From contig JACOXI010000003.1 in the NCBI GenBank assembly GCA_016176335.1, positions 6,920 to 70,919 on the forward strand: a DNA stretch of 64,000 bases, given 5' to 3'. The notes under the pieces were generated by a model. That model was not told the DNA's origin and searched no databases. It worked only from the letters and a program-made list of their open reading frames with translations. Both the position numbers and the translations under genes were made by a program. Position 1 is the first letter of the stretch. The number at the start of each line of letters is the position of its first letter. Shown here piece by piece: positions 5,903 to 58,830 of this stretch. Source of the DNA: Candidatus Daviesbacteria bacterium. Its GTDB lineage: Bacteria > Patescibacteriota > Microgenomatia > Daviesbacterales > UBA10151.

Positions 5903-6705
5903 GAGAATTTAGAATTAAGGTTTTTTTAAATTGCTTTTTATTAGCTTTATTCTTGATTCTTGTCGCTTTATTCTACCATCCTACTTTTGCCCAAACCTCA
6001 ACATGTGGTGGTGGAACCGGGGACCGGGCCACTGGGCTGGTCTCTACTCCCCAACTTATGTCTGGTTCTAAATTTGGTACCACAACAGGAGCTTGTATAA
6101 TTGACCCCAAAACAGCTTTTGTCCCCTTTAAAATCCCAAGCTATGAAGATTTAAAATCACTTTATTATACCCAATCCAAAGCTACTAAAATAGATGCTAC
6201 ACCTGCCTCTGGTACGGCTAATCAAGGTACCATCAGATCTGCTTTGAACAGTTCTGATATCATACTGATCAGAGGAGATCTGAACCTCAACGGTAACTTG
6301 GGAGGAAGCCCAAAAACCGCTGTCATTTTGGTTGAAGGTAACCTGAATTTTGGAGGTAGCAATTTTACATTCGGTGATAACAACACGGGTGTTGTCTTTG
6401 TAGTAAGCGGTAATGTTAATATTGACCCAACGGTTACTCAAATAGATGCAATTATTATTGCCGGCGGAATAATTTGTACAGCTTCTGGCGGTTCTGTTTG
6501 TCCAACTGCTAATGTCCCGAACTCACAACCACTTGTGATTAATGGCAGCTTAATATCTTTAAATGAGTTAGCCTCTATTAAATTCAGGCGTTCGCTCGCT
6601 GATAATAGACGGCCAGCTGAAAAAATCAATCATCAAATCAAATATCTGGTAATTTTAAGAGATCTTTTGTCCGATACTTATCAAAAATGGTCAGAAATAC
6701 CCTAA
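5899..6705 (+). CDS. Secreted hypothetical protein with beta-strand repeat (GNLN/GNVN) segment
   Basis: It has a signal peptide. It carries repeats 'GDLNLNGNLGG...VEGNLNFGGSNFTFGDNNTGVVFVVSGNVNIDP' suggestive of a beta-helix or solenoid. Confidence 0.35.
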   Translation: MREFRIKVFLNCFLLALFLILVALFYHPTFAQTSTCGGGTGDRATGLVSTPQLMSGSKFGTTTGACIIDPKTAFVPFKIPSYEDLKSLYYTQSKATKIDATPASGTANQGTIRSALNSSDIILIRGDLNLNGNLGGSPKTAVILVEGNLNFGGSNFTFGDNNTGVVFVVSGNVNIDPTVTQIDAIIIAGGIICTASGGSVCPTANVPNSQPLVINGSLISLNELASIKFRRSLADNRRPAEKINHQIKYLVILRDLLSDTYQKWSEIP

Positions 6706-6739
6706 AGAGTCATCAGCTATCAGACGTCAGTCGTCAGAC

Positions 6740-7129
6740 ATGAATACACATAAATTTAGAAAACTGAAAGTTTGGCAAAGATCAATTCAATTTGTAACTT
6801 TAATCTATAAAATTACTACTAAGTTTCCGAAAGAAGAAAAATATGGACTAGTAGATCAAATAAGAAGGGCTGCTGTGAGTATTTGTCTAAATATTGCCGA
6901 AGGCTCGGGATCAGGCTCTGATGCAGAATTTGTTAGGTTCTTAAGAATAGCACAGCGATCAGCTTATGAAGTAATTGCTGCATTAGAAATTACAATTAAT
7001 CTTAAAATGACGAACAAATCGGCATTAGATGGTGCTATAGTGGAGGTAGACCAGTTAAGCGCCATGCTTACTGGACTTATTAAAAGTCTGAAAGCTGACA
7101 GGTCCGATGTTAAATCGGACCGATACTGA
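6740..7129 (+). CDS. Four-helix-bundle protein (TIGR02436, '23S rRNA intervening sequence protein' family)
   Basis: 'KLKVWQRSIQFVTLIYKITTKFPKEEKYGLVDQIRRAAVSICLNIAEGSG...' is characteristic of this family. The ORF is flanked by inverted GTCAGTCGTCAG motifs. Confidence 0.75.
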   Translation: MNTHKFRKLKVWQRSIQFVTLIYKITTKFPKEEKYGLVDQIRRAAVSICLNIAEGSGSGSDAEFVRFLRIAQRSAYEVIAALEITINLKMTNKSALDGAIVEVDQLSAMLTGLIKSLKADRSDVKSDRY

Positions 7130-8921: not shown

Positions 8922-9830
8922 TCACTTTTCCCTTTCCACCATATATTGCACCATTTCCGAAAATAACTTTCTCATTTTGGCATCAGAAGTAATCTTTGGT
9001 ATTACTCTTTTTGCTCTAAAAGCATATTTTAACGCTTTGGCCTCTGCCTTGTCCACTGATTCTACTTCCCCATCCAAAATATCATCTCTAATCTGAAAAG
9101 CAATCCCTGCATTCTCCCCGAATTCTTTTATCCCGCGAAGCCTTGGCGAAGTGGGACCTGCTCCTGCCAGAATTGCTCCGAGTTTAAGAGGGCCTGAAAT
9201 AGTATATCTGGCTGTTTTAAGTTTAGCTGTAAGCTTCGGGTCAGCATGGGCAACATCAAGCATTTGTCCTATGGCAGTATCCAGCATTGTTTGGGAAAAA
9301 AATCTTAAGGCCTGGTTTTTTAATTTATCTTCAAAGTTGCTTTCAGTAATAATTTTTATTGCCAGAAAAAAGCCTGCATCTGCCAAAGTGATGGCCTGCT
9401 CCACTCCTACGCGCTTATACAAGGAGGGCTGACCACGTCTTTTGGGACTTTGATCAATTATGTCGTCATGGGCCAAAATGGCAGCATGAAATATCTCATA
9501 AGCTGCAGCAATTTTAATAATAGAGCTTTCAGCTGTCAGTATCGCTTCGCCCGCCTTTGGCGTGGCTTCGCTGTCAGCTTTCAGACTTTTTTTGTCTTTG
9601 TCTGATTGCTGATAGCTGATAGCTGATGACTCTTTTGCAATCTCATATCCCAACACCACCAAAGTTCCCCTGATTCTCTTGCCTCCCTTGCAGGCTTTGA
9701 TGAATTTGTCAACCAAAGGCAATAGACTTCCGGAAGTCTTGCCAACCCCATTCCTCCATTCTTTTAACAATCTCTTTAACTCTTTATCAATGTGTTCAAC
9801 TGTTTTTTGACTAAATATCTTAAAATCCAT
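8922..9830 (-). CDS. Polyprenyl (geranylgeranyl/farnesyl) diphosphate synthase; carries an in-frame repeat insertion
   Basis: The first Asp-rich motif is 'AHDDIIDQSPKRRG'. A ~95-bp repeat-derived insert encodes 'SYQQSDKDKKSLKADSEATPKAGEA'. Confidence 0.85.
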   Translation of the reverse strand: MDFKIFSQKTVEHIDKELKRLLKEWRNGVGKTSGSLLPLVDKFIKACKGGKRIRGTLVVLGYEIAKESSAISYQQSDKDKKSLKADSEATPKAGEAILTAESSIIKIAAAYEIFHAAILAHDDIIDQSPKRRGQPSLYKRVGVEQAITLADAGFFLAIKIITESNFEDKLKNQALRFFSQTMLDTAIGQMLDVAHADPKLTAKLKTARYTISGPLKLGAILAGAGPTSPRLRGIKEFGENAGIAFQIRDDILDGEVESVDKAEAKALKYAFRAKRVIPKITSDAKMRKLFSEMVQYMVEREK

Positions 9831-12063: not shown

Positions 12064-13233
12064 ATGGTAGAATTGCCTTTCATGAAAAGCAAACTTTCTC
12101 TTCGCGACTTTCCTTCCGCTCAAAAAAGACGCCAGTTTTTAGAAAAAGAGTTAAAACTAGACTTGGACAGTCTTGGTAGTTTCACTTTTTCAGAGGAAGA
12201 AGTCACCGGTAGAAATATAGAAAATCTAATTGGAGCAACACATATTCCTTTGGGTATCGCTGGTCCACTCAAAATCATAAATCATAAATCATCAATCATA
12301 AATCACTTTATACCATTGGCCACTACCGAAGGAGCATTGGTAGCTTCTTTATCCCGCGGCTGCAAGGCCATCACAGAAAGTGGCGGGACAGAAGTTTTGG
12401 TGGAAAATATCGGTATCACCCGCGGCCCGGTATTTAGGACTGAAAGCTTGCAGCATGGACAACAAATCAAAAAGTGGGTGGAGCAAAACTTCACCAAGTT
12501 GGCCAAGGTATCAAAAAGTACTTCTTCCCATCTGAAATTACTGAAAGTAGAACCAGCCATGGTGGGACGTAATTTGTGGCTTCGTTTCTATTTTGATACT
12601 GAAGATGCCATGGGCATGAATATGGCAACAATTGCCACAGATGAGGCAGTGAAACTAATTGAAAAGGAAACAAAAGCTAAGTGTATATCTTTGGCAGGAA
12701 ATTATGACATTGACAAAAAGCCCTCTTGGCTGAATTTCATTTCCGGGCGGGGTAAAAAGGTCTGGGCAGAAGCTGTCTTACCCAAAAAAGTGGTCAGGGA
12801 AGTGCTTAAAACTACGCCGGAAAAGATGGCCGAGGTAGTCTATAGAAAATGCTTGCTGGGTTCAGCAGTCAGCGGTTCATTGGGCTTTAATGCTCATTTT
12901 GCCAATATACTCTCCGCCATCTTTCTGGCCACCGGCCAAGATCCCGCTCATGTGGTGGAAGGCAGTTTGGGAGTGACCACTGCCGAGGTTATGCCCAATG
13001 GCAACTTATATTTCTCCGTCTATCTGCCATCTTTGGTGGTGGGAGTAGTTGGCGGAGGAACACATCTGCCTACCCAAAAAAAAGCCTTAGAAATTATGCA
13101 GGTGAACAATGTGCTAGAATATACTCGGGCTGTGGGAGCAGCTGTTATTTCTGGTGAAATTTCATTAATTGCCTCTCTTTCGGAAGGAAGTTTGGCAAAA
13201 GCACACCGGAAACTGGGTAGAAAAGGAAAATAG
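12064..13233 (+). CDS. hmgA: Hydroxymethylglutaryl-CoA reductase (class I, archaeal/eukaryotic type)
   Basis: 'ENLIGATHIPLGIAGPLKI...TTEGALVASLSRGCKAI' matches. The track ORF starts at 11992 inside the upstream gene, and an in-frame ATG at 12064 is the more likely start. It contains an in-frame 'atcataa' tandem repeat that encodes 'IINHKSSIINH'. Confidence 0.85.
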   Translation: MVELPFMKSKLSLRDFPSAQKRRQFLEKELKLDLDSLGSFTFSEEEVTGRNIENLIGATHIPLGIAGPLKIINHKSSIINHFIPLATTEGALVASLSRGCKAITESGGTEVLVENIGITRGPVFRTESLQHGQQIKKWVEQNFTKLAKVSKSTSSHLKLLKVEPAMVGRNLWLRFYFDTEDAMGMNMATIATDEAVKLIEKETKAKCISLAGNYDIDKKPSWLNFISGRGKKVWAEAVLPKKVVREVLKTTPEKMAEVVYRKCLLGSAVSGSLGFNAHFANILSAIFLATGQDPAHVVEGSLGVTTAEVMPNGNLYFSVYLPSLVVGVVGGGTHLPTQKKALEIMQVNNVLEYTRAVGAAVISGEISLIASLSEGSLAKAHRKLGRKGK

Positions 13234-13383
13234 GAGCGAAGTCACAAGTAATCAAAAAATGTAGTGCAGTTGAGCGCACCACTTATTCAATGTTTCGAAA
13301 CCAGAATCTGGCGCGAAACAAACACCAAGTGAGCGATCCGGTCGCGCGAACGGTTTTTTGTACTGTGACGAGCGACAAACATT
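13234..13383 (+). repeat. ~145-bp dispersed repeat element, copy 1 (fills the hmgA / HMG-CoA synthase intergenic region)
   Basis: It is near-identical to 26611..26759 and 57806..57960. It shares 'agcgaagtca...caaaaaatgt.gtgcagttgagc...ggcgcgaaac...gcgagcgacctggtcgcgcgagcggttttttg...tgacgagc'. Confidence 0.8.
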
Positions 13384-24351: not shown

Positions 24352-24963
24352 TCAATTAAACTGATTTTGGGCTTTTTCCAAGCCCTGTTCCAAAAGAATA
24401 TCTAAAGCTTTAACAGCCTGTTTTATCATATGTTTTACTTTTGATTTTTCAGAATGCCTGAATGGTTCCAATACAAACTTATTTGTATCAACATGAGCGT
24501 GTTTATGTTCTGAACTTTGAGTTCGTAAATTGCCGATACCTAATCTTACTCTGATAAATTTATCTGTACCTAAAGAATTAATTATGGATTCCACTCCATG
24601 ATGTCCTGCTGCTGCTCCTCCCAATCTGACTTTAATTTTTCCCAAAGGTAAATCCAAATCATCATGAATCACAATTAGATCGGTAGTCGACTCGCCTCGC
24701 GAAGCGGGTAGTTTGTAGTATGTAGTAAGGAGTTTTACAGCTATCCCAGAGTTATTCATATAGGTTTGAGGTTTTACAAGGGTTAAGCGGGAAGCGTTAA
24801 GGGTGAAGTCTAAAATTTCAGACTTAAATTTTTCTTCATATTTCCAACTTTCCCCTTGCCCCTTTACCCTTTTCCCTAACTCCTCCACCACCATAAACCC
24901 CAAATTGTGCCTGACTTTGGTATATTTTTCCCCTGGATTTCCCAAACCAACTATTAATTTCAC
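24352..24963 (-). CDS. pth: Peptidyl-tRNA hydrolase; carries an in-frame GC-rich insert
   Basis: 'MKLIVGLGNPGEKYTKVRHNLGF' matches. An insert 'LPASRGESTTDLIV' comes from the 'tcgcctcgcgaagcggg' motif. Confidence 0.9.
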   Translation of the reverse strand: MKLIVGLGNPGEKYTKVRHNLGFMVVEELGKRVKGQGESWKYEEKFKSEILDFTLNASRLTLVKPQTYMNNSGIAVKLLTTYYKLPASRGESTTDLIVIHDDLDLPLGKIKVRLGGAAAGHHGVESIINSLGTDKFIRVRLGIGNLRTQSSEHKHAHVDTNKFVLEPFRHSEKSKVKHMIKQAVKALDILLEQGLEKAQNQFN

Positions 24964-26610: not shown

Positions 26611-26759
26611 AAGTAAAGATAGCGAAGTCACAAGCAGTCAAAAAATGTTGTGCAGTTGAGCATACCACTTTATTCATGACCGATTCCATTCCATGGCGCG
26701 AAACGAACACAAGCGAGCGACCTGGTCGCGCGAGCGCTTTTTTGCGCTGTGACGAGCTA
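26611..26759 (+). repeat. ~145-bp dispersed repeat element, copy 2 (fills the PRTase/IMPase intergenic region)
   Basis: It aligns end-to-end with copies at 13234..13383 and 57806..57960. Its 'tgacgagctag' end supplies the PRTase stop codon. Confidence 0.8.
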
Positions 26760-27398
26760 GCTTGTCAATAATTGTACCACCTCTTCATCTGATACAGGCT
26801 CAAATTTGTGATAAAACTGGCCAACTGCCTGGAAATACTCAGGTGTTTCCAAAACCACTACCTCCCCGAACTCTCCTAACTCCCTGATGATTTTCTCTAC
26901 TGGTTCTTTACTTGCCACAGGTATGGCCAAGATTATTTTTTTAGCTTCATGCCTTTTTAAATACCTGACAGCAGAAAGTGTTGTTGCACCTGTGGCAATC
27001 CCATCATCAACAAGGATTACAGTTTTACCTCCGACATTAAGAGGTTTTTTTTCTCGCCTATATAAATCCTCTCTCCTTGTTATCTCTTCTACCTCATTTT
27101 TCACTGTTTCCTTCAAATCATAAATCGTTGATCCTAAATCATCAATCAAATTCTGATCCCACACCACCTCACCATCCGGATCTACTGCTCCCAAAGCCAA
27201 TTCAGGCTGGGTCAGGGCACCTATTTTTCTGGTCACAATAATATCCAAGGGTAAGTTTAATGATTCTGCTACTGCGGATGCCACCACCACTCCTCCTCTG
27301 GGAATACCAAGTACCAGGACATTATCTTTACCTTTGTAGTGTTTAAGATGTTTTGCGAGCAATTTCCCGGCTGATTGTCTATCTTTAAAAATCTTCAT
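26757..27398 (-). CDS. Phosphoribosyltransferase (type I PRTase fold)
   Basis: 'VILVDDGIATGATTLSAV' is the PRPP-binding motif. Confidence 0.7.
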   Translation of the reverse strand: MKIFKDRQSAGKLLAKHLKHYKGKDNVLVLGIPRGGVVVASAVAESLNLPLDIIVTRKIGALTQPELALGAVDPDGEVVWDQNLIDDLGSTIYDLKETVKNEVEEITRREDLYRREKKPLNVGGKTVILVDDGIATGATTLSAVRYLKRHEAKKIILAIPVASKEPVEKIIRELGEFGEVVVLETPEYFQAVGQFYHKFEPVSDEEVVQLLTS

Positions 27399-27474: not shown

Positions 27475-28845
27475 CTAATCGAACAACCCCAATTGTGGGG
27501 CTTGATCTTCCTTCTTTTCTTCGGCTCCGTCCTCTCTCTCGTTCCATATCTTCACCACCCCATATACTCCATCATAGCCCGGATCAATCACCAAATCTGC
27601 CTGTCGCACTTTTCCCACTCCTTCTGCAATCTTGGGGCCTGATATTTTGGCTATTTCATCTAAAGATGTTTTGGTCAAAACCTTTATCTCTCCTCCCAGA
27701 TTAGTCACTAACTTTTTATACTCTAAAATCACCTTTTGGGTTGTTGGAGCAGTATGAAAACTTTCAGCAATAATTTGTATTAAAGGCACCAGCATTCTAT
27801 ATCCCGGCCTAGTTGGAAAAGTTTTGCTTTTTATTACTCCTCCTTCATTGTCCATTGTCAATTGTCCATTGTTTCGCGAAGCGAGAACTTCCACCCTCTC
27901 CATTACCCCCACAGTCAAACCTCTACCGCATTTAGGGCAGATCGTACCTTTGGTCTTGGTCTCTTCCGGAGTATACTTTATATTACAATTTCTATGCCCT
28001 GTGTAATGATACTTTCCTTCTTCAGGATAAAATTCTATAGTTCCTGCAATTTTTTGCTCTTTTATTGTCATAAATAACCCTGAATAACCCTCACTTATCT
28101 CCCCATCAAATACTGTTGCTTCTCTGCCTAAATTTGGTAAGGAGTGGGCATCTGAAAAAGAGATAATTGATCTGTTGTCAAGCTCTTTTATCCTCCAGTT
28201 CATGGCCGGGTCAGAACTTAATCCTGTTTCTATTCCATAAATATACTGTGTTAGATCCTCAAAACATTCTTTCAGAGAATCATAGCCTGACTCGGAACCA
28301 AAAATTCCAAACCAAGGAGTCCAAGCATGAGCCGGAATAAAAAGAGCTTTTTCCGATGCCTGCAAGGCCAAAGACAGTAAGTCTTTTGAAGGTATTCCCA
28401 CAATAGGCCTGCCATCAGAACCTAAAGTTGCTCTTCTTGATAAAAGCTCCTTTTGAAATCTCTCCGCGGAAACAAAATCAGGCATAAAAACCAGATTATG
28501 TACTCTTCTTCCCCTACCTTTCTGGGAATACATTGAAGCAATTTCCACAGTTAAAACAAATCTTACCCCCCGCCTTTGGCGAGGCTCGCTCGCCTCGTGG
28601 CGAAGCAACGGGCCTTCGGCAGCTTCACCTTTTCCGCTTTCCCCTTTCATACTTAAAAATCCAGACCCATCCTCTGTCAAATCTTTTTTAAGCTCCGCAA
28701 ACCAAAGTGGGTGCAAAAAATCCCCTGTACCCAAAACATCAATGCCTTTATACTTTGCCCATTCAACCAAATTTGGAACATTTAATTGGGGGGAGCAGGC
28801 CCGGGAGTATTTGGAGTGAATATGCAAATCAGCCACATATGCCAT
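27475..28845 (-). CDS. PHP-domain nuclease, endonuclease Q (EndoQ)-like; carries two in-frame repeat inserts
   Basis: The N-terminus has the PHP motif 'VADLHIHSKYSRA'. A Zn-finger 'CPKCGRG' follows. This architecture matches archaeal EndoQ. The inserts are 'KGESGKGEAAEGPLLRHEASEPRQRRG' and 'ASRNNGQLTMDNEGG'. Confidence 0.55.
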   Translation of the reverse strand: MAYVADLHIHSKYSRACSPQLNVPNLVEWAKYKGIDVLGTGDFLHPLWFAELKKDLTEDGSGFLSMKGESGKGEAAEGPLLRHEASEPRQRRGVRFVLTVEIASMYSQKGRGRRVHNLVFMPDFVSAERFQKELLSRRATLGSDGRPIVGIPSKDLLSLALQASEKALFIPAHAWTPWFGIFGSESGYDSLKECFEDLTQYIYGIETGLSSDPAMNWRIKELDNRSIISFSDAHSLPNLGREATVFDGEISEGYSGLFMTIKEQKIAGTIEFYPEEGKYHYTGHRNCNIKYTPEETKTKGTICPKCGRGLTVGVMERVEVLASRNNGQLTMDNEGGVIKSKTFPTRPGYRMLVPLIQIIAESFHTAPTTQKVILEYKKLVTNLGGEIKVLTKTSLDEIAKISGPKIAEGVGKVRQADLVIDPGYDGVYGVVKIWNEREDGAEEKKEDQAPQLGLFD

Positions 28846-28849
28846 GAGG

Positions 28850-29383
28850 CTATTTTAGCATACCTTGTCTTTTGGCTAATCTTTTCTTGAATAGATTTTC
28901 TCTAAAACCACCTTCCCTCACAAATTTTTCTTCTAACCACCTCAGTTTTTGGTCAAGCAAACGGTTGGTTTGGTTAATGAGGCAGATAATGGCATTAGCT
29001 GCTTGTTCTGGGTTTTCAATATAATTTTTATAATCGTTATAACTATTATAATTGTTATAAACTAAGCTTCTTACTTTTTTAGCCTCTGGGGAATCCTTTT
29101 CCCAAAGTTTTAACCCCCTCTGCCTTAAAAAATCCAAATAATCATTTAAAAGTTCTTCTAAACTTCCCCTTGCTACTCCTAAAAGTTTAATTCTTCCTTC
29201 CAGGCTTTTTTGCAGATAACCTTCAGGAATATTTTGTTTTCCGGATCTGGCAGCCTGTTCCATCTGATCTTTAGTCCTGGATTTATAATCAATGTATCTT
29301 TTAACAAACTCAACAGTGAAGTCATAAATAATCTCAGCTTGTTTGAAGAAAGGAAGAGATTTGTAACCACCGGTTTGATTCAT
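28850..29383 (-). CDS. Four-helix-bundle protein (TIGR02436 family, long form)
   Basis: 'LPFFKQAEIIYDFTVEFVKRY' opens the protein. It has the C-terminal four-helix-bundle suffix region. An N/Y-rich segment comes from a 'ttataa' repeat duplicated upstream. Confidence 0.7.
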   Translation of the reverse strand: MNQTGGYKSLPFFKQAEIIYDFTVEFVKRYIDYKSRTKDQMEQAARSGKQNIPEGYLQKSLEGRIKLLGVARGSLEELLNDYLDFLRQRGLKLWEKDSPEAKKVRSLVYNNYNSYNDYKNYIENPEQAANAIICLINQTNRLLDQKLRWLEEKFVREGGFRENLFKKRLAKRQGMLK

Positions 29384-31180: not shown

Positions 31181-31708
31181 ATGATCTTGACAAGCAGAAT
31201 TGCTCTTGTAAAATTACCCTCTATGCTTTATCCTGAGGGAGAGATGGAACAGACACCAAAACAACCTCCCACAGCTGAGGGGCCTAAACTTCCTCAAACT
31301 GAAGAAGAGCTGAATCAAATACTTAATACTGCCCGTAGAGCAGGTGCCATAGCGGCTATTAACTCCATACACGAGGAGATAGCACAAACACTTAGCACTA
31401 ATACAGGATATATGGAACTAATTCAATTGGGGTTAGCTAGGGCTGCTGCAACTGGAGGTTTTACTCGGCAAAACTTTAGACCGATACTTCAGTATCTTGA
31501 GGAAATCTTGAATGCTGGAAAAAAAGAAGTAACAATCCTCTTAAAATATAAACAAGCGGCAGTAGAGGGGAGAATCAATTTTGCTGAAATTGGTAGTGAT
31601 CCACAAAGTAGATTACAGGTTTTGGATATTCATCCCCAGGTTCAACCATCGTCAACAACTCAAGATGTTTCACCAGCGAATCCTAGCTCTCCTTTAACAC
31701 ATAAATAG
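31181..31708 (+). CDS. Hypothetical protein
   Basis: No motifs are recognised. Its 3' end overlaps the first 46-bp direct repeat. Confidence 0.3.
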   Translation: MILTSRIALVKLPSMLYPEGEMEQTPKQPPTAEGPKLPQTEEELNQILNTARRAGAIAAINSIHEEIAQTLSTNTGYMELIQLGLARAAATGGFTRQNFRPILQYLEEILNAGKKEVTILLKYKQAAVEGRINFAEIGSDPQSRLQVLDIHPQVQPSSTTQDVSPANPSSPLTHK

Positions 31709-31738
31709 CTTTTTTGGTGCCGCCGGACTTTTTAACCA
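31693..31738 (+). repeat. 46-bp direct repeat, left copy, flanking the BrnTA cassette
   Basis: It is 45/46 identical to 32331..32376, which encodes the Fic C-terminus. Confidence 0.8.
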
Positions 31739-32326: not shown

Positions 32327-33403
32327 TTACTTTAACACATAAATCGCTTTTTTGGTGCCGCCGGACTTTTTAACCAAACCCTTTTGACGCAAAAATTTAA
32401 GTTCCCGCAGCACTGTATCATCAGAATGATCCGGGAAAATTTTCCTAAAATCCTTATTGGACATTCCCTTGTGCCTGTGGATATATTCCATAATCATCAT
32501 CTGCCTCTCATTTAAGGCCACCTGCTCCCCCAGCTTATCTTTAATCCTGGCATCAGTGGAAATTCTTTGAACCTTTTCCTTAACTCTGTTTAACTCTATT
32601 GCCACACCCTGGGTAAAATACTCCAGCCAGGGAGTTAAATCCCTCTCATGTGTATCTAGTACAAGCTGGTTTGATACAGCTTGTAATGTTAAGTAATAGT
32701 CCATAGGGTTTTCATCAAAATACTCTTCAAATGAGAAAAATTTTCTAATGTCGTAATTATCCAAAAACATCACCAGTGTGGCAACTGCTCTTGCCACTCT
32801 GCCGTTTCCATCAACAAAAGGGTGAATCCTGGCAATTTCATAATGAATAATTCCTGCTTTAATGACCGGGTGGGTACTTTTTCCCTCATCAGAGTTGATC
32901 CAATTAACCACATCCTCAATTTGATATGGCACCTCAACTGCCGGAGGAGGCGTGTAAGATACTTGTCCGGTTTTGGTATTGCGGATTACTACCTGACGCA
33001 GCCTAAACTTACCGCATGACTCCGGAGGCAAGATTTTGTCTGTTGTCAGCTTGTGAATTTCCAAAATTGTTTCAAGTGTAAAATTATATGCACCGGAAGT
33101 GCCGATTTGGGCTTGCACCGCATCAATAAATTTTAAGACATTTCTGTAATTTATTATCTCCCAAACATCTCTATCCCGGGCAATTACTTCTTGTCCGTCT
33201 AAAACATCCCTAACTTCTTCCTCTGACAGCGGATTTCCTTCAAGATGAGTTCCGTGGTGAACTGTCCGCTCTATGGCCTCTTTTCTAAATTTTGCCTCCC
33301 AGGCAGGTATCAGCGGAGCATTCATAATAACTTCTCTCGCAGCCTCAACAATACCTATGTCTTTGAGGATTTTATTGGTAATTGTATACTTGGGAATAAA
33401 CAT
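32327..33403 (-). CDS. fic: Fic/DOC family protein with C-terminal wHTH
   Basis: 'HPFVDGNGRVARAVATL' is the Fic motif HPFx[DE]GNGR. Confidence 0.85.
   Translation of the reverse strand: MFIPKYTITNKILKDIGIVEAAREVIMNAPLIPAWEAKFRKEAIERTVHHGTHLEGNPLSEEEVRDVLDGQEVIARDRDVWEIINYRNVLKFIDAVQAQIGTSGAYNFTLETILEIHKLTTDKILPPESCGKFRLRQVVIRNTKTGQVSYTPPPAVEVPYQIEDVVNWINSDEGKSTHPVIKAGIIHYEIARIHPFVDGNGRVARAVATLVMFLDNYDIRKFFSFEEYFDENPMDYYLTLQAVSNQLVLDTHERDLTPWLEYFTQGVAIELNRVKEKVQRISTDARIKDKLGEQVALNERQMMIMEYIHRHKGMSNKDFRKIFPDHSDDTVLRELKFLRQKGLVKKSGGTKKAIYVLK
32331..32376 (+). repeat. 46-bp direct repeat, right copy (= 3' end of fic coding sequence)
   Basis: It encodes '...VKKSGGTKKAIYVLK*' of Fic on the minus strand. 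Confidence 0.8.
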
Positions 33404-33485
33404 GATTATAGCTATCAGTCTTCAGCTATCAGCTTTCAGACTGTACCTAAAAATGTCTGACGACTGACGACTGAAAGCCGACGAC
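33404..33485 (+). repeat. Palindromic 'CAGCTATCAG...GTCTGACGACTGACGACTGA' element (copy A)
   Basis: It matches copies at 42343..42422 and 56706..56785. Confidence 0.7.
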
Positions 33486-33521
33486 TACTTCAATTTTCGC
33501 ATATTTCCCGCAAAATTCCAA

Positions 33522-36500
33522 CTAAGGAATGACATATTCATCCCAACTTTTGATCTGTAAATCTGCTATTTTTTTGGAAGACAAACTTGATACTAATAAT
33601 TCTGCAGCTTGAAGATTGGTGATAAGCGGAATTCCCAAATCAATACAATGCCTTCTTATCACAAATCCATCCGTTTCTCCTTTGGAAGATCCTCCCACGG
33701 AGATATTGATGGCAAGATCAATATGACCTGCTTTCAGTAAGTCCAAAACCGACGGATGTTTTTTCTCTGAAATTTTGTAAACTCTTATACTACTTATTCT
33801 ATGCTGTTTTAAAAACTGATGTGTGTGTTCTGTGGCATAAATTTTAAATCCTAAACCGAAGAGCAGTTTGGCAGATTCCAGAAAATCCAGCTTATTTTTC
33901 TCTCCCCCAAGTCCCAAAAATACACTTTTCTTTGGCATTTTAAAGCCGGTTGCCAGCAGTGCTTTAAGATAGCCTTCCTCTAAGTCATCACCAAAACAGG
34001 CCACCTCACCGGTTGAGGACATCTCTACTCTTAACCTGGGATCTGCTCCTTTTATTCTGTTAAAAGAAAATTGAGGAGCCTTAACTGCTACATAATCCAA
34101 ATCTATAGTTTTAAAATCTCCCTGAATGTCCTCTCCAAGCATGACTTTTGTTGCCATCTCCACCAAGTTGTAACCGGTAACTTTGGAGACAAACGGGAAG
34201 GACCTCGAGGCTCTTAAATTAAGCTCGATCACTTTAATCTCATTATCTTTGGCTATAAATTGAATGTTGAACGGACCACAAATCTTAAGTTCTCTTAGAA
34301 TCTTTTTTGTAGCCTCTTTGATCTGTCTGACAGTTTCAAGGTAGAGTTTTTGCGGAGGCAAAACCAGCGTTGCATCACCGGAGTGAACCCCGGCATTTTC
34401 AACATGCTCTGATATGGCATAAATTAAAAGATTCCCGTTTACTCCTACTCCGTCAATTTCAATCTCTTTGGCGCCCTCCACAAATTTGGAGATAACAACA
34501 GGATGCTCACTTAAAATATCCGCTGCCTGTTTTAGATATTTTTTAAGCTCAGAAGAAGAGTAAGCAACATTCATGGCAGAGCCTGACAAAACATATGAGG
34601 GTCTGATCAAAACAGGGTAGCCAATTTTTCTTGCAAACTCTAGAGCATCACCCAAACTTTTAAGACTCATCCAGGCAGGTTGTTCAATGTTTAACTTATC
34701 CAAAATTTTGGAGAATTTATGCCTATCTTCTGCTCTGTCTATAGAAATAGGTGAGGTGCCGATAATTTTGTAGCCTGCTTTGTAACATTTTAAAGCTAGG
34801 TTGTTTGGAACTTGTCCACCAAAGCCCAAAACTAAACTGCCTTTTTCAATATCATAAATATCGGACACTCTCTCGAAAGTTAATTCTTCAAAGTATAATT
34901 TATCGGCCAAATCATAATCTGTGGAAACAGTTTCCGGGTTACAATTTATGATGATTGTTTCCAAACCTCTCTGCCTTAAGGTTTGTGCAGCGGTAACGCA
35001 GCACCAATCAAACTCCACTGACGAACCAATACTGTATGGTCCGGAACCTAAAACAATCGCTTGGTCCTTGAGTAGCTTAGGTGACTTAAGTGACTTAATA
35101 TTTGCCTCTGACTCTTCACCATGATAGGTCAAATATAAATAATTGGTCTTTGCCGGAAATTCTGCTGCCAAAGTATCTATGTGCTTGACCTTTGGGATAA
35201 TGCCATGTTTTTTTCTAAATTTCCTGACCTGTTCTTCTGTTGTGTTAAAAGCTTTTGCAATCACTCTATCTGAAAAACCCAGCTTCTTTGCTTTTGCAAT
35301 CGTCTGATTGCTCGCCTCGCTGAAGCTCTGGCGAAGCGGGCTGAAAGCTGAAGGCTGAAGGCTATCTTCAAACTCCGCCATCTCTTTAATTTGATGCAAA
35401 AACCAGGGATCAATGCCTGTTTCCTGATAAATTTTCTCGACACCCTCTCCTTTTGAAAACTCTTTGGCAATTGAGAAAAGTCTTTGTGATGTGGGAAGGA
35501 GTGTGCTACTATCAACTCCGTTTGATAAGCCGTCTTGCCCTATCTCCAGCATTCTAATAGCTTTTTGCAAGGCCTCCGGAAAAGACCTGCCTATTGCCAT
35601 GACCTCCCCCACACTTTTCATCTCCGATCCGATAGCCTCATACGCCCCCACAAATTTTTGTAAATCCCATCTGGGAATTTTAACCACAATATAATCCAAA
35701 GCAGGCTCAAAAAAAGCAGAAGTTGATAGGGTGATCCTGTTTTTTAAGTTGGGTAAGTTGTAACCCAAAGCTATTTTGGCAGCGATATATGCTAAAGGGT
35801 AACCAGTTGCTTTTGAGGCTAAAGCCGATGAGCGGGATAGCCTGGCATTAACTTCAATTACCCGGTAATCATTATTTCGGGGATTTAGGGCAAATTGAAT
35901 ATTACACTCCCCCAAGATCCCCAAATGCTCAATAACCTGCAAAGACAGTCTTCTTAAGAAGTGGTACTGATAATTGTTTAAGGTTTGTGATGGTGCAACA
36001 ACTATACTTTCACCGGTGTGAACCCCCATTGGATCCAAGTTCTCCATATTACAAACAGTAATCTTGTTTCCATTGTTATCTCGGACAACCTCATATTCAA
36101 TCTCTTTCCAGTGTTTTAAATACTCTTCAACAGTAATTTGGGGGACATGTTTTAAGGTGATTGACACCATTTTTACTAAATCTTCCTTATTACTCACCAC
36201 CCCTGATCCCAAACCTCCCAAGGAAAAACCTGATCTGACAAGAAGGGGGAACCCCAAATTTTCAGCAATTTCTTCTGCTTCTTTGACGGTTTTTGCAAAT
36301 CCACCTTTTGGAACTTTAACAGCAATTTTTGAAAGTGCTTTTGCAAACAATTCCCTATCTTCGGTTACTTCAATACTTCTAATCGGTGTTCCTAAAACTT
36401 TTACACCGTATTTTTTAAATATATCTTTTTTATCTAAAGCAAGGCCGCAATTTAAAGCAGTCTGTCCCCCGAATGAAAGGAAAATTCCATCAGGTTTTTC

Positions 36501-36722
36501 TTTTTCAATGACCTTTGTCACAAAATATGGAGTAACAGGCAGAAAGTAGATTTTATTGGCTAGACTTTTAGAAGTTTGGATGGTGGCAATATTAGGGTTG
36601 ATTAGTACAGCCTCCACACTCTCTTCTTTTAAAGCTTTTAAAGCTTGTGAACCGGAGTAATCAAATTCTCCGGCCTCACCGATTTTTAATGCCCCAGAGC
36701 CCAAAATAAGAATCTTTTTCAT
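33522..36722 (-). CDS. carB: Carbamoyl-phosphate synthase large subunit; carries an in-frame repeat insert
   Basis: It is 1066 aa with duplicated ATP-grasp halves and an MGS-like C-terminus. The insert 'SLQPSAFSPLRQSFSEASNQ' lies at 35308-35370. Confidence 0.95.
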   Translation of the reverse strand: MKKILILGSGALKIGEAGEFDYSGSQALKALKEESVEAVLINPNIATIQTSKSLANKIYFLPVTPYFVTKVIEKEKPDGIFLSFGGQTALNCGLALDKKDIFKKYGVKVLGTPIRSIEVTEDRELFAKALSKIAVKVPKGGFAKTVKEAEEIAENLGFPLLVRSGFSLGGLGSGVVSNKEDLVKMVSITLKHVPQITVEEYLKHWKEIEYEVVRDNNGNKITVCNMENLDPMGVHTGESIVVAPSQTLNNYQYHFLRRLSLQVIEHLGILGECNIQFALNPRNNDYRVIEVNARLSRSSALASKATGYPLAYIAAKIALGYNLPNLKNRITLSTSAFFEPALDYIVVKIPRWDLQKFVGAYEAIGSEMKSVGEVMAIGRSFPEALQKAIRMLEIGQDGLSNGVDSSTLLPTSQRLFSIAKEFSKGEGVEKIYQETGIDPWFLHQIKEMAEFEDSLQPSAFSPLRQSFSEASNQTIAKAKKLGFSDRVIAKAFNTTEEQVRKFRKKHGIIPKVKHIDTLAAEFPAKTNYLYLTYHGEESEANIKSLKSPKLLKDQAIVLGSGPYSIGSSVEFDWCCVTAAQTLRQRGLETIIINCNPETVSTDYDLADKLYFEELTFERVSDIYDIEKGSLVLGFGGQVPNNLALKCYKAGYKIIGTSPISIDRAEDRHKFSKILDKLNIEQPAWMSLKSLGDALEFARKIGYPVLIRPSYVLSGSAMNVAYSSSELKKYLKQAADILSEHPVVISKFVEGAKEIEIDGVGVNGNLLIYAISEHVENAGVHSGDATLVLPPQKLYLETVRQIKEATKKILRELKICGPFNIQFIAKDNEIKVIELNLRASRSFPFVSKVTGYNLVEMATKVMLGEDIQGDFKTIDLDYVAVKAPQFSFNRIKGADPRLRVEMSSTGEVACFGDDLEEGYLKALLATGFKMPKKSVFLGLGGEKNKLDFLESAKLLFGLGFKIYATEHTHQFLKQHRISSIRVYKISEKKHPSVLDLLKAGHIDLAINISVGGSSKGETDGFVIRRHCIDLGIPLITNLQAAELLVSSLSSKKIADLQIKSWDEYVIP

Positions 36723-42288: not shown

Positions 42289-42346
42289 TAAAAAAGCCCT
42301 TGCAAGTTCCCAAAGATTAACTTTAGAAACTTACAAGGGCCTTATT
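42289..42346 (-). terminator. Terminator/attenuator-like hairpin immediately upstream of argH RBS (minus strand)
   Basis: On the minus strand 'aaggcccuuguaaguu' pairs with 'aacuugcaagggcuu' and is followed by 'uuuuuuaa'. It lies between the leader region and the argH SD. Confidence 0.45.
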
Positions 42347-42422
42347 TCAGCTTTCAGACTTCAGCTATCAGCTTTCAGACTTTTGTAATTGTCTGATGAC
42401 TGACGCCTGACGACTGATGACT
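42343..42422 (+). repeat. Palindromic CAGCTATCAG/GACTGA element (copy B) in the argH leader
   Basis: The sequence is 'cagctttcagacttcagctatcagctttcagactt...gtctgatgactgacgcctgacgactgatgact'. Confidence 0.7.
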
Positions 42423-42457
42423 AATCAAGACGGTGCCACCTTGCTTAAATTTTGCTA

Positions 42458-48827: not shown

Positions 48828-49847
48828 TCAGGAGAGTTTGCCTTGGCGGGCAAGAGAGACTTTTTTTGTAACTTCCAGGAAAGCTTTTTGGGCAGCAGGA
48901 ACATTTTTCTCTTTCCCAGCTCGCCTCGCTCCGCGGGCGGAGCGGGCCCAAATTTCCAAAGCCTCGCCTTGTAAGGCTCTGGCAAAAGAGAAAGATAATT
49001 GCCATGGCCCGCCTATGTTATTTATTGCCTGCAGATTATCTGTTGCCATATCAGCAGACTGACCTCCGGATAAAAATACCACTCCCGGAAGCTCTTTTGG
49101 CACTGATTCCAAAAGCGCATCAACTGTTGCCTTTGCCACCTCATCTGCTGTTGCCTGTTTGGGGTTGTCCTCACCGGCTGTGGCCATATTGGTTTTCAAC
49201 AGCAATCCTTCCAAGGCTACTTTATGAACATTAATCCTTTCAAAAACAGCCTTCAGAGTTTGAGCTGTAACTTGTGCGCACTTTTCCAAAGTGTGAGAAC
49301 CGCCTCTTATTACTTCCGGCTCAATAATTGGTACCAGTCCTGCATTTTGAGTGATGGCTGCATAACGGGCTAAAACCTCTGCATTTGCCTCCAAACAAGT
49401 CTGTGTTGGGATTTCCTCCCCTATGGTTATCACGGCTCTCCATTTGGCAAACTTGGCACCCATTTGGGCATATTCTTCCAACCTTCCTCGCAATCCATCC
49501 AATCCCTCGGTAATTTTTTCTGCCGGAAAATTAGCAAAATCTACCACTCCTTTATCCACTTTTATTCCAGGGATAATTCCTTTATTTTCCAGATATTTTG
49601 GCACAGATACTCCCTCAATCTCCTGTCTGATTGTTTCATCATAGAGGATTACTCCTGATAGAAATTGTTCCACCCCGGGAGTAGTAAAAAGCATGCTTCT
49701 GTAAGCTAAATTGGTTTGGGGGGTTGAGGTTAAGCCAATCTTATCAAACCTTTTTTGGATGGTTTTGGATGACTCATCAGCTGCCAGAATACCTTTGGTT
49801 GGATTAAGTAAAGCAGAAACTGTTTGTTTTAATTGGTTAATATCCAT
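48828..49847 (-). CDS. fba: Fructose-bisphosphate aldolase, class I; C-terminal in-frame GC-rich insert
   Basis: 'GILAADESSKTIQKRFDKIGL' is the class I FBA N-terminus. The insert is 'ARSARGARRAGKEKN'. Confidence 0.8.
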   Translation of the reverse strand: MDINQLKQTVSALLNPTKGILAADESSKTIQKRFDKIGLTSTPQTNLAYRSMLFTTPGVEQFLSGVILYDETIRQEIEGVSVPKYLENKGIIPGIKVDKGVVDFANFPAEKITEGLDGLRGRLEEYAQMGAKFAKWRAVITIGEEIPTQTCLEANAEVLARYAAITQNAGLVPIIEPEVIRGGSHTLEKCAQVTAQTLKAVFERINVHKVALEGLLLKTNMATAGEDNPKQATADEVAKATVDALLESVPKELPGVVFLSGGQSADMATDNLQAINNIGGPWQLSFSFARALQGEALEIWARSARGARRAGKEKNVPAAQKAFLEVTKKVSLARQGKLS

Positions 49848-56532: not shown

Positions 56533-58830
56533 TCATAACACTAATAACTTCATCTCTCCCCAATTGGGGCCTACTTTTAGATCCACCACTACTGGTACAG
56601 ATAATTTTAGGGCATTTTCCATTTTATCTTTGACCATTTGGGCAATTTCTTTAACGCTCTTGGGGTCACACTCAAACAACAATTCATCATGAACCTGGAG
56701 GATGAGTCGGCAGCTATCAGATCGTTCGCTGCGCTCACTGTCAGCTTTCAGACTGTCTGACGACTGATGACTGATGACTGATAACTCCTTATCAATTTCC
56801 ACCATGGCCTTTTTGATCATATCTGCTGCTGTTCCTTGAACCGGATGATTGATGGCTGCTCTCTCACCAGCTGCTTTGATGGCGTGATTTGAGGCTGTAA
56901 GTTCAGGGATATATCTTTTCCTGCCCCAAAGAGTTTCAACATACCCCCTTTCATATCCAAAGGCTAAAGTCTTTTGCATCCACTGGGAAACTTTGGGGAA
57001 TTGTGCAAAATATTCCGCAATATATGTTCGCGCCACCTCATATTCCACCCCTAACTGACGGGACAAGGCATGGGGGCCCTGACCATATAACGTTGCAAAG
57101 TTCATGGTTTTACCTACATTTCTTTGCTGTTTTGTAATTTTATCAATTGGCATTTTGAAAATTTTACTGGCAGTTGCTACATGAATGTCTAATCCTTCTC
57201 TGAAGGACTTTCTTAATCCCGGATCATCTGCCAAATGAGCCATAATCCTAAGCTCGATTTGTGAATAATCAGCTGCCAAAAGTACCTTGCCTTTGGGAGC
57301 AATGAAGGCGCGTCTTATTTCTCCACCCTCCTCACCTTTAATTGGGATATTTTGCATGTTTGGGTTTTGAGAAGACAGCCTGCCTGTGGCAGCTCCTTCC
57401 ACATTAAAAGTGGAGTGAATCCTGCCATCTAATCCTACAGATTTAGGCAAGGCATCTATGTAGGTTGATACCAGTTTGAAAAGCTGGCGATACTCTAAAA
57501 GTAATGGCACTACAGGATGAGCTGCTACCAACTCATGAAGGGTGGCCTCATCTGTTGATCTACCAGTTTTGGTCTTTCTCACCACTGGTAATTTAAGTTC
57601 GTCAAACAGAATCTGCGACAGTTGCTTTGGGCTGTTCGGATTAAACTCATGTCCTATTTTTGAGTAAATTTCTTTTTCTAATTTAATTAATCTACCTTTT
57701 AAGGCTTTCCCAAGTCTCTCTAAAAACCTTAAATCTATTAGTACACCAGTTTTGGACATCCTTTCTAAAACTGGCTGTACAGCTAAATCCAAATCCGTGG
57801 TATTTATGGAGTTAGCGAAGTCAGAGGTAGCCAAAAAATGTGGCGCAGTTGAGCGCACATCCTTATCCATGCTTGAATTACCTACTTGGCGCGAAACAAG
57901 TCCCAAGCGAGCGACCTGGTCGCGCGAGCGGTTTTTTGCATCCTGACGAGCTACTCCCACACCTGGAATCCTACCAATCAAACTTTTAAACTCCAATTCT
58001 TCAAACAATTTAACTACTTTTTCTTTATCAAAATCATGAACCTCACACTTCTTCAAATCTAACTTAATTGGGGCTTTGCCATCTAAGGTGGCTAGTTTTT
58101 TACTCATTACAGCATCTTCTGCACCTTCTGCCAACAGCTTTTGCATTCTTTGCGGTAAAGTTTTTAAATTCTTGGGACGGTAAATTTCTTCAATCGTGCC
58201 AAACTGGTGTATTAATTTTGTCGCAGATACATCCCCTATTCCAGAAACTCCCGGGATATTATCCGATGCATCTCCTGCCAGCGCCTTATAATCAACCAAA
58301 AGTTTGGGTGCAAATCCATATCTTGCCACAAACTCTTCCTCCCCATACAGCCCCACATCCGCAAGGGTTTTTTTAGGCATAAAAACTTTCACTTTTCCAT
58401 TAATCAGCTGCATGATATCCCGATCACCTGTCACAATAATAATTTCTAATTTCAAATTTTTAATTTTTAATGCTTGGCTTGCCAGTGTGGCAATCAGATC
58501 ATCTGCCTCATAACCTGATAAGCTAAATTGCGGCATGTTAAATGCCCTGATGACCTCATGCACTCTGTGATATTGATTACCCAATGCCTGATCCAGCTCA
58601 CGTCTTGTGGCTTTATATTGAGTATAAGCTTGATGTCTAAATGTCGGCCCCCTTTCATCCCAGGCAACGGCCAGAAATGTAGGTTTAAGCTCATTTAAAA
58701 CCTTCAGCATCATTGAGGAAAATCCATATACAGCATTGACCAGTTCTCCTTGGGAAGTAGTAAAAGGAGGAGTAGCATGATAAGCCCGATGCAGCAAAGC
58801 ATTACCATCAACTAAAACCAGTCGTTTCAT
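56533..58830 (-). CDS. polA: DNA polymerase I (5'-3' exonuclease + polymerase domains; no evident 3'-5' exonuclease domain); carries two in-frame repeat inserts
   Basis: The N-terminal 5' nuclease is 'MKRLVLVDGNALLHRAYHA'. The Pol A motifs 'DYSQIELRI' and 'QVHDELLFE' are present. Inserts lie at 57806-57960 (the 145-bp element) and 56706-56785. Confidence 0.9.
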   Translation of the reverse strand: MKRLVLVDGNALLHRAYHATPPFTTSQGELVNAVYGFSSMMLKVLNELKPTFLAVAWDERGPTFRHQAYTQYKATRRELDQALGNQYHRVHEVIRAFNMPQFSLSGYEADDLIATLASQALKIKNLKLEIIIVTGDRDIMQLINGKVKVFMPKKTLADVGLYGEEEFVARYGFAPKLLVDYKALAGDASDNIPGVSGIGDVSATKLIHQFGTIEEIYRPKNLKTLPQRMQKLLAEGAEDAVMSKKLATLDGKAPIKLDLKKCEVHDFDKEKVVKLFEELEFKSLIGRIPGVGVARQDAKNRSRDQVARLGLVSRQVGNSSMDKDVRSTAPHFLATSDFANSINTTDLDLAVQPVLERMSKTGVLIDLRFLERLGKALKGRLIKLEKEIYSKIGHEFNPNSPKQLSQILFDELKLPVVRKTKTGRSTDEATLHELVAAHPVVPLLLEYRQLFKLVSTYIDALPKSVGLDGRIHSTFNVEGAATGRLSSQNPNMQNIPIKGEEGGEIRRAFIAPKGKVLLAADYSQIELRIMAHLADDPGLRKSFREGLDIHVATASKIFKMPIDKITKQQRNVGKTMNFATLYGQGPHALSRQLGVEYEVARTYIAEYFAQFPKVSQWMQKTLAFGYERGYVETLWGRKRYIPELTASNHAIKAAGERAAINHPVQGTAADMIKKAMVEIDKELSVISHQSSDSLKADSERSERSDSCRLILQVHDELLFECDPKSVKEIAQMVKDKMENALKLSVPVVVDLKVGPNWGEMKLLVL
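56706..56785 (+). repeat. Palindromic CAGCTATCAG/GACTGA element (copy C) in-frame inside polA
   Basis: The sequence is 'cagctatcag...ctgtcagctttcagactgtctgacgactgatgactgatgactga'. It encodes 'SVISHQSSDSLKADSERSERSDS'. Confidence 0.7.
57806..57960 (+). repeat. ~145-bp dispersed repeat element, copy 3, in-frame inside polA (antisense to the gene)
   Basis: It aligns over its full length with the 13234..13383 and 26611..26759 copies. It is translated as 'ARQDAKNRSRDQVARLGLVSRQVGNSSMDKDVRSTAPHFLATSDFANSINT'. Confidence 0.8.

Follow-up and report, generated by a model that had tools for sequence, protein, structure and literature searches.

A GC-rich mini-palindrome inserted in frame in conserved genes of a Candidatus Daviesbacteria bacterium

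The DNA analysed here (the window) is a stretch of 64,000 nucleotides from a Candidatus Daviesbacteria bacterium (assembly GCA_016176335.1, contig JACOXI010000003.1, positions 6,920 to 70,919), a member of the Candidate Phyla Radiation (CPR, Patescibacteria). Its GC content is about 39%, its genes lie mostly on the minus strand and its GC skew is monotonic across most of its length. Four of the genes, pth, carB, fba and a PHP/MJ0043_C-type gene (open reading frame, ORF, 27475-28845), each carry a copy of a GC-rich motif that we name element B; on the coding (minus) strand it reads CCGCTTCGC and GAGGCGAGC, separated by 0-12 nt. The corresponding plus-strand pattern, CTCGCCTCGC...GCG[A/G]AGCGGG, lies at 24691-24708, 35311-35340 and 48920-48946, and comparison with empty orthologous sites refined these boundaries to those given in Table 1 (18, 30 and 27 nt). 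A first-pass annotation had proposed one insert family in pth, carB, fba and ispA. Both the pattern and the empty sites uphold the first three members; ispA drops out, and the copy at 28588-28608, which had not been listed, takes its place as the fourth.

A scan of the window that allowed at most three mismatches in total found exactly four copies of B. Twenty Markov shuffles of the window produced one match altogether (about 0.05 expected against 4 observed), and each 10-mer arm on its own matched six times at no more than one mismatch, against about one match expected, a count that no shuffle reached. B is a real, statistically solid repeat family, and the possibility that the pth, carB and fba inserts share nothing beyond GC-richness is clearly not borne out. 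All four copies are intragenic singletons, 3.9-13.6 kb apart and in one shared orientation. A near-match at 27876-27885 was considered as a further insert and rejected; it encodes the conserved residues LASR, and the length there is unchanged in 12 orthologues. The same ORF, 27475-28845, also contains a heptamer-like TTGTCCA/TTGTCAA repeat (27839-27872), which encodes NNGQLTMDN at the same length as in the orthologues.

Orthologous sites without the element were found for each of the four genes. In Pth, exactly six residues are absent at ...YYKLP^TTD... in 24 of the 26 aligned close homologues, including one that is 88% identical (P0002), and among about 107 close homologues the short form is present in 98 and a B-type insert occurs at this site in only three. 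At the DNA level the empty locus L003 reads CTA CCA ACT ACC where the window reads CTA C[CC GCT TCG CGA GGC GAG T]CG ACT ACC, and the identical 18-mer occupies the same pth site in a second genome, L082. For carB, the empty site (L009 and most of 22 Daviesbacteria loci) has ...GCT TTC AGC followed directly by TAT CAG ACT, and the window has 30 additional bases between them; the insert lies in a linker that is hypervariable among the 22 Daviesbacteria carB genes. In the aldolase gene, empty loci (L013, L016 and L008) run from TGG GCA straight into GGA AAA and the window has 27 more bases there, which add RSARGARRA after ...ALEIWA. The product of this ORF is a class I aldolase by Pfam and PDB matches; its alignment with the best PDB chain (3kx6), which ends at residue 310, is ungapped at the insert, with NGSMSNAAA opposite the inserted residues. 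In ORF 27475-28845 the copy of B is part of a 23-residue composite insert that is missing from 12 orthologues.

The first-pass annotation had the GC-rich inserts in frame in four genes, and for three of these, pth, carB and fba, frame analysis agrees. B begins at codon position 2 in pth, position 1 in carB and ORF 27475-28845, and position 3 in fba, and the encoded peptides (PASRGE, PLRQSFSEAS, RSARGARRA and LLRHEAS) are unrelated. LASRRSG, a further peptide encoded by a copy of B, also differs from the others. As both reading frame and peptide differ between copies, the conserved object is the DNA and not the protein. The 30-mer contains a single stop codon, a TGA in one of its six frames, and the shorter forms contain none.

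Table 1. Copies of element B and associated GC-rich modules in the window
Feature	Position	Strand	Context
Element B, 18-nt form, CCGCTTCGC GAGGCGAGT	24690-24707	-	pth (ORF 24352-24963), in frame; adds six residues, giving ...YYKLPASRGESTTD...
Element B, 21-nt form, left arm degenerate, TTGCTTCGC CAC GAGGCGAGC	28588-28608	-	PHP/MJ0043_C-type gene (ORF 27475-28845); found by the mismatch scan
Element B, full 30-nt form, CCGCTTCGC CAGAGCTTCAGC GAGGCGAGC	35310-35339	-	carB (ORF 33522-36722), in frame; adds PLRQSFSEAS
Element B, 27-nt form, CCGCTCCGC CCGCGGAGC GAGGCGAGC, left arm CCGCTCCGC	48919-48945	-	fba, class I aldolase (ORF 48828-49847), in frame
Composite 69-nt in-frame insert, GKGEAAEGPLLRHEASEPRQRRG	28567-28635	-	GCCGAAGGC mini-hairpin, then B, then CGCCAAAGGCG module
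GC-rich non-B module, plus strand CCCGCCTTTGGCGTGGCTTCGCT	9550-9572	-	Within the composite ispA insert; homologous to 28569-28590
Second copy of the module, plus strand CCCGCCTTTGGCGAGGCTCGCT	28569-28590	-	Directly adjoins a B copy

The distribution of B in relatives is patchy. A sister set of 22 Daviesbacteria carB loci (about 395 kb, one per GTDB species) held only one further copy, in L007, which is 21 nt long, occupies another carB linker and runs in the opposite orientation; most of these loci are without any B, and exact counts of the 10-mer arms are almost all zero in them, so the family is lineage-patchy and not universal in Daviesbacteria. Besides its pth 18-mer, L082 (GCA_964360965.1) has a 27-nt B in a DUF3105 gene, in the opposite orientation. 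Altogether, the window and related loci gave six copies in 481 kb of Daviesbacteria DNA, against one weak match, on a high-GC contig, when 988 kb of DNA of other phyla were scanned equally.

A pattern scan of JGI metagenomes returned at least 120 stretches, and the metagenome figures given here and below hold among the matches listed. On low-GC contigs (at most 53% GC) there were 55 copies with conserved loops, and the base before B was C in 53 of the 55. Their lengths were 30 nt (27 copies), 21 nt (12), 24 nt (6), 18 nt (2) and 27 nt (2), 89% being multiples of three, and the consensus of the 30-mers is CCGCTTCGC CGAAGCTTCAGC GAGGCGAGC. The 59 matches on high-GC contigs (at least 60% GC) had random loops and lengths, as chance predicts. 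Stop-free stretches of at least 150 aa surround 24 of 57 low-GC copies, and about 19 of the 57 are probably non-coding; with respect to the gene, copies in long ORFs lie in the same orientation in about 15 cases and in the opposite one in 9. Host genes include those for LeuRS (on three contigs), PGK, DnaG, LigA and HtrA. The PGK gene of contig L108 carries B and an 85%-identical relative, L250, does not; the homologues named for the L108 gene are from Pacebacteria, Minisyncoccia or Paceibacterota, from which we conclude that the family spans at least two CPR classes and is present or absent among close relatives.

Three observations from these scans may be added. In the PGK pair (L108 1019-2299 and L250 1501-2730), B is embedded in a 24-nt unit that resembles it, AGGCCCGCCTTGACTCGNCGAGGC, and of which the B-bearing genome alone has a tandem duplication. 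L139, a metagenome contig of 35% GC, has tandem units (each about 250-305 nt) at 1045-1941, and three of these each hold a 21-nt B with the loop ATC. Matches on viral contigs (n = 40) were considered as B copies and are read as chance, all but three loci lying in phage contigs of at least 56% GC with loops that are nearly all unrelated. The one exception among them is L226 11529-11555 (IMG/VR, 61% GC), whose loop, CGACTCAGC, is identical to that of the DUF3105 copy in L082; this match may be genuine, which would put B in a phage-like contig.

B is an imperfect palindrome with the core (G)C-CCGCTTCGC-loop-GAGGCGAGC and the flank consensus G G C at positions -3 to -1. In the 30-nt forms the coding strand is predicted to fold into an 8-bp stem (CGCTTCGC/GCGAGGCG) with one G-T pair, and the predicted folds of the 18-, 24- and 27-nt forms use other registers. 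The strand that reads ...GCGAAGCGG contains d(GCGAAGC), a DNA mini-hairpin whose stability Hirao and colleagues reportedly found to be unusually high. Inverted repeats of at least 6-7 nt flank 27-31% of the low-GC metagenome copies, against 4-8% when the flanks are re-paired at random, an excess which indicates that B often sits in the loop of another hairpin repeat. Examples of such nesting are CCTGCCTGCCGGC[B]AGGCAGG and GTCATTCCCGC[B]GAAAGCGGGAATC, and the CGCCAAAGGCG hairpin that adjoins B in the window does so also in metagenome loci L146 and L200. No T-run follows the B hairpin. Rfam gave nothing at gathering threshold on the window, and E-value searches with the window and six B-bearing loci gave nothing at B.

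The site used in Pth appears to lie between a helix and the strand bearing the catalytic HDD motif, and corresponds to a 6-residue gap relative to PDB 2lgj. An AlphaFold model of low confidence (shallow alignment, pLDDT 58) places the insert between H72-82 and E96-102. Within 9 nt of one site in pth, the insert varies with the lineage, and the inserts come from no fewer than four hairpin families. The window and L082 have B, L206 has the perfect palindrome CTCGCTTCGCGAAGCGAG, L207 the hairpin CCTGCC...GGCAGG, L208 a CCAGCCAAAGGCTGG hairpin and L209 yet another hairpin. The 18-nt palindrome of L206 (L206 78-710, P0015) differs from B by exactly two transitions, both of which restore pairing, and may be a product of quasi-palindrome correction or a distinct subfamily. 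The pth gene is also a mosaic. Against its closest relative, L085, the gene shows 92-98% identity outside a segment of about 120 nt that surrounds the insert and has 46-65% identity; this segment is 84-88% like those of L082, L003 and L010 (window-L082 0.87, window-L003 0.84). The pattern suggests recombination within the gene that brought in a different allele class around the insert.

Other in-frame mini-hairpin families occupy the same linkers in sister genomes: in carB (L009, L012 and L015), in orthologues of ORF 27475-28845 (L082, L008 and L021) and in pth (L207-L209). They comprise CCTGCC..GGCAGG (encoding DLPVGRQ or LPAGRQG), CCGCCAAAGGCGG (SAKGGQ) and families that encode CHAELVSAS..KRVRDD, VIPANAGIQ..LDPRLRGDD and SPSAPRNDG. 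From these sequences, in-frame mini-hairpin inserts at linkers appear to be a general phenomenon in the Daviesbacteria clade. Beside B in carB, the linker SLQ(P/S)SAFS (35340-35364) is encoded by 3-4 tandem heptamers of the form AG[TC]C[TAG]TC. Most Daviesbacteria have this heptamer-coded linker (loci L002-L021), with L006 and L008 lacking it, and it is probably an older in-frame heptamer-repeat insert.

Several known families of small repeats resemble B. Repetitive extragenic palindromic (REP) sequences are likewise short (20-40 nt), GC-rich imperfect palindromes with a tail of a few nt, dispersed in many copies, family-specific in sequence and patchy in relatives. With 18-30 nt and an 8-bp stem in its 30-nt forms, B has the size and the palindromic character of a REP, its folding energy being within the range of shuffles. 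Intragenic REPs are known, for example in Opitutus terrae and Rickettsia conorii, and REPs carry a conserved GTAG or CGTC tag at one end (Di Nocera et al. 2013, PMC3733652); systems that pair inverted REP doublets (REPINs) with a REP-associated tyrosine transposase (RAYT) have also been described (Bertels and Rainey 2011, PMC3116915). B differs from these in that its ends, (G)C-CCGCTTCGC and GAGGCGAGC, bear no such tag, and in that REPs and REPINs are mainly extragenic and occur as inverted doublets whereas the window copies are intragenic singletons. It also goes down to 18 nt, comes in discrete multiple-of-three lengths and has CPR hosts.

The Rickettsia palindromic elements (RPEs), reportedly described by Ogata et al. 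in 2000 (Science 290:347; cited from PMC3184786), are palindromic, lie in frame in conserved genes and are absent from orthologues; B behaves in the same way in pth, carB, fba and ORF 27475-28845. RPEs are regarded as selfish DNA in coding sequence that is tolerated at the protein surface, and B may be so too. Classic RPEs are reportedly about 100-150 bp and specific to Rickettsia. B is 18-30 nt, is also common in non-coding hairpin repeats and is hosted by CPR bacteria, and we know of no sequence relation between the two. Since B lacks the tag, the extragenic location and the doublets of REPs and the size of RPEs, we do not file it in either family; it works like them. The small dispersed repeats (SDRs) of Nostoc and its relatives, which Elhai et al. 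reportedly described in 2008, are said to be about 21-27 nt, hairpin-forming, mobile in behaviour, nested in repeats, near tandem heptamers and mostly intergenic. They are like B in being very small hairpin repeats nested in other repeats and beside heptamers; the window genome is rich in heptamer repeats and the carB copy abuts tandem heptamers. The phylum is different, and the sequence presumably so. The closest documented cases are intragenic REPs and Rickettsia RPE-4/6 (PMC3733652), and classic RPEs and cyanobacterial SDRs are closest in behaviour.

Two further kinds of element are more distant. Yeast mitochondrial GC clusters and the palindromes of algal organelles (Volvox, PMC2670323) are GC-rich palindromic mini-elements in AT-rich compact genomes, occasionally in coding sequence, but they are organellar and of other sequences and sizes, and a shared mechanism is unsupported. 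MITEs (miniature inverted-repeat transposable elements) are short non-autonomous repeats of inverted-repeat character that can occur in genes, but they are usually longer than 50 bp; their terminal inverted repeats and their target-site duplication of fixed length derive from a parent insertion sequence, and B has neither of these. Our literature searches did not find in-frame hairpin inserts described in CPR bacteria.

We consider that B is probably a selfish dispersed mini-palindrome of the REP/RPE/SDR kind, copied into many CPR sites and persisting in genes. This reading follows from identical copies at unrelated loci in different frames and both orientations, from the empty sites, from the patchiness, from the presence in two CPR classes and from the nesting. 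Copies would be made at new sites and then filtered by selection, such that only in-frame, stop-free copies in tolerant loops persist where intergenic space is almost lacking. Survival in genes would be allowed by a length that is a multiple of three, by at least five of six frames being stop-free and by a position in a linker or loop, where 6-10 extra residues rich in Arg, Ser, Ala, Gly and Glu may be tolerated. The inserts are presumably translated, close to neutral and without function. That the lengths fall into multiples of three, in non-coding copies too, fits an in-frame filter and also deletions between internal GC/AGC triplets, and it suggests that selection on coding sequence has shaped the element family itself.

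Copying may be enzyme-mediated, the leading candidate being an HUH/Y1 transposase acting in trans that would recognise a single-strand hairpin; microhomology-guided template switching or recombination is an alternative. Several targets resemble part of B. In carB the flank GCTTTCAGC lies beside a loop that ends in GCTTCAGC, L007 has the 15-nt direct repeat GAAGCGGGCGAAAAG, and in L108 the target is the B-like 24-nt unit, which is also duplicated. Together with the L206 variant, these B-like targets are leads to a possible microhomology-guided copy-choice component.

Some results weigh against a selfish repeat. The predicted DNA hairpin energies, -3.4 to -9.1 kcal/mol, are no better than those of shuffles of the same composition (z = -0.6 to -1.5). 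At the junctions, the end of the element (AGC) overlaps the target by 1 nt in pth, 2 nt in fba and 3 nt in carB; as this overlap is so short and is not constant, there is no target-site duplication of fixed length. No RAYT gene was seen in the 64 kb, and window ORFs of at least 100 aa contained neither a transposase domain nor any other candidate mobilising gene. The exact conservation of the arms across distant hosts might come from selection for a function, and not from recent copying. Finally, one and the same pth site has the identical 18-mer in the window and L082 and the perfect-palindrome variant in L206, which may reflect either a single old insertion that recombination has spread or a strong preference for this target, and the segment identities favour neither.

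Of the other explanations, we think it unlikely that the hairpins arise repeatedly on the spot, by quasi-palindrome template switching, slippage of GC-rich triplets or microhomology-mediated template switching that borrows from other copies. The target flanks that resemble B (carB, L007 and L108) are in keeping with such an origin, as are the size classes, which differ by multiples of 3 between GC/AGC direct repeats, and the L206 palindrome, which is B with exactly the two pairing-restoring changes that quasi-palindrome correction predicts. A purely de novo process, however, cannot yield one and the same pair of asymmetric 9+9-nt arms, with one loop consensus, at loci that are unrelated and belong to different classes of bacteria; it requires a template copy and so becomes a way for B to spread, not a rival explanation. 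A cis-element that has a function, is kept by selection and is tolerated in genes only as a side effect, such as an uptake or recombination signal, a site for a nucleoid or topology protein or an mRNA hairpin, would account for arms that are identical in distant CPR hosts and for the single orientation of all four window copies on a replichore with monotonic GC skew. CPR bacteria are, moreover, thought to depend on DNA uptake. A DNA uptake sequence would occur about once per kb and throughout the relatives, whereas B has 4 copies per 64 kb, or about one per 16 kb, and one further copy in about 395 kb of sister loci. This low density, the lack of B in most sister genomes and orthologous sites, the presence of both orientations relative to the gene (L082, L007 and the metagenome set) and the absence of an Rfam match make a functional role quite unlikely, and the missing T-run after the hairpin also speaks against it. 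A further explanation is that selection acts on the protein and favours one particular low-complexity linker peptide, in line with which all the inserts occupy loops or linkers and abound in Arg, Ser, Ala, Gly and Glu. Read in three frames and on both strands, the DNA of B gives unrelated peptides, and about one third of the metagenome copies lie outside long ORFs; the frame analysis has already refuted this explanation, to which we give practically no weight.

The first-pass annotation had further related the short inserts to the GGCGCGAAAC and AGCGAAGTCA cores of a 145-bp repeat and supposed that they were decay products or solo arms of the larger elements, whether this repeat or the heptamer-based palindromes of the window. 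GCGAAG is indeed common to B and the 5' end of the 145-bp element, larger hairpins in other genomes often have B as their apical part, and the ispA insert joins a GC-rich module to a heptamer palindrome. When the inserts in pth, carB and fba, together with the 30-nt consensus, were aligned locally with the three 145-bp copies, the scores were nevertheless not above chance (p = 0.2-0.8 against shuffles), so that the kinship with the cores is not upheld, and alignments with the five palindromic elements gave p = 0.03-1.0, with none surviving multiple testing; in neither case did the inserts align better than shuffled inserts. The ends of B are, in addition, fixed and the same in many genomes without the 145-bp or heptamer elements, and the larger hairpins that contain B elsewhere (CCTGCC...GGCAGG, GTCATTCC...GGAATC) are absent from the window or unrelated to anything in it. 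On these comparisons an origin by decay seems largely refuted already, and we regard it as very improbable.

If B is indeed selfish, its location in genes has a simple background. With so little non-coding DNA in the tiny CPR genomes, genes are almost the only place where a spreading element can land. Intragenic small palindromic repeats are known mainly from Rickettsia and a few REP-rich bacteria, and B would be their smaller-scale counterpart in the CPR. It would account for some of the odd insertions, rich in Arg, Ser and Ala, by which alignments and annotations of CPR proteins are cluttered, could be used as a marker for recent genome dynamics and recombination in uncultivable organisms, and would identify permissive loops in essential enzymes. 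A broader proposal groups B with the other mini-hairpins of these protein loops in one undescribed class of mobile elements, ultra-small (12-30 nt) and coding-compatible, that would pervade the CPR/Patescibacteria. Such elements would insert preferentially into single-stranded hairpin loops and permissive protein loops, possibly by means of a single-stranded-DNA transposase in trans or by microhomology-guided copy-choice. We put this forward tentatively and hold it to be possible though doubtful; if true, the lineage-specific insertions in housekeeping proteins of the CPR would have this class as a major source.

The ispA insert (9540-9634), which the first-pass annotation had counted as a member, is a real insert, but it lacks the GAGGCGAG arm and has only the CGCTTCGC 8-mer in common with B. 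The B scan finds no copy there, and ispA was rejected as a member of the family; what it contains instead is a different module of 23 nt, CCCGCCTTTGGCG[A/T]GGC(T)TCGCT, which it shares with 28569-28590 (local alignment score 18, against a shuffle maximum of 16).

The 145-bp-type repeat is present in three copies, at 13231-13376, 26617-26760 and 57810-57954, two of them between genes. The polA ORF (56533-58830) contains the third, which falls between the domains for 5'-3' exonuclease and polymerase and is apparently an in-frame insert of RPE size. Palindromic elements built of tandem heptamers (CTGATAG, CTGACGA and AGCTTTC types) lie at 6703-6741, 9573-9635, 33405-33490, 42344-42426 and 56735-56790. 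They are mostly intergenic, one being part of the ispA insert and one lying within the polA ORF coordinates, and have no significant similarity to B.

Among other features of the window, a 47-nt direct repeat that is 98% identical between its copies (31692-31738 and 32330-32376) lies at the ends of two neighbouring genes, an unknown ORF and a Fic-domain gene, which flank a CopG antitoxin gene. Two genes for 23S rRNA intervening-sequence proteins (PF05635) lie at 6740-7129 and 28850-29383, one a strong match (1e-36) and the other weak, with a low-complexity tail.

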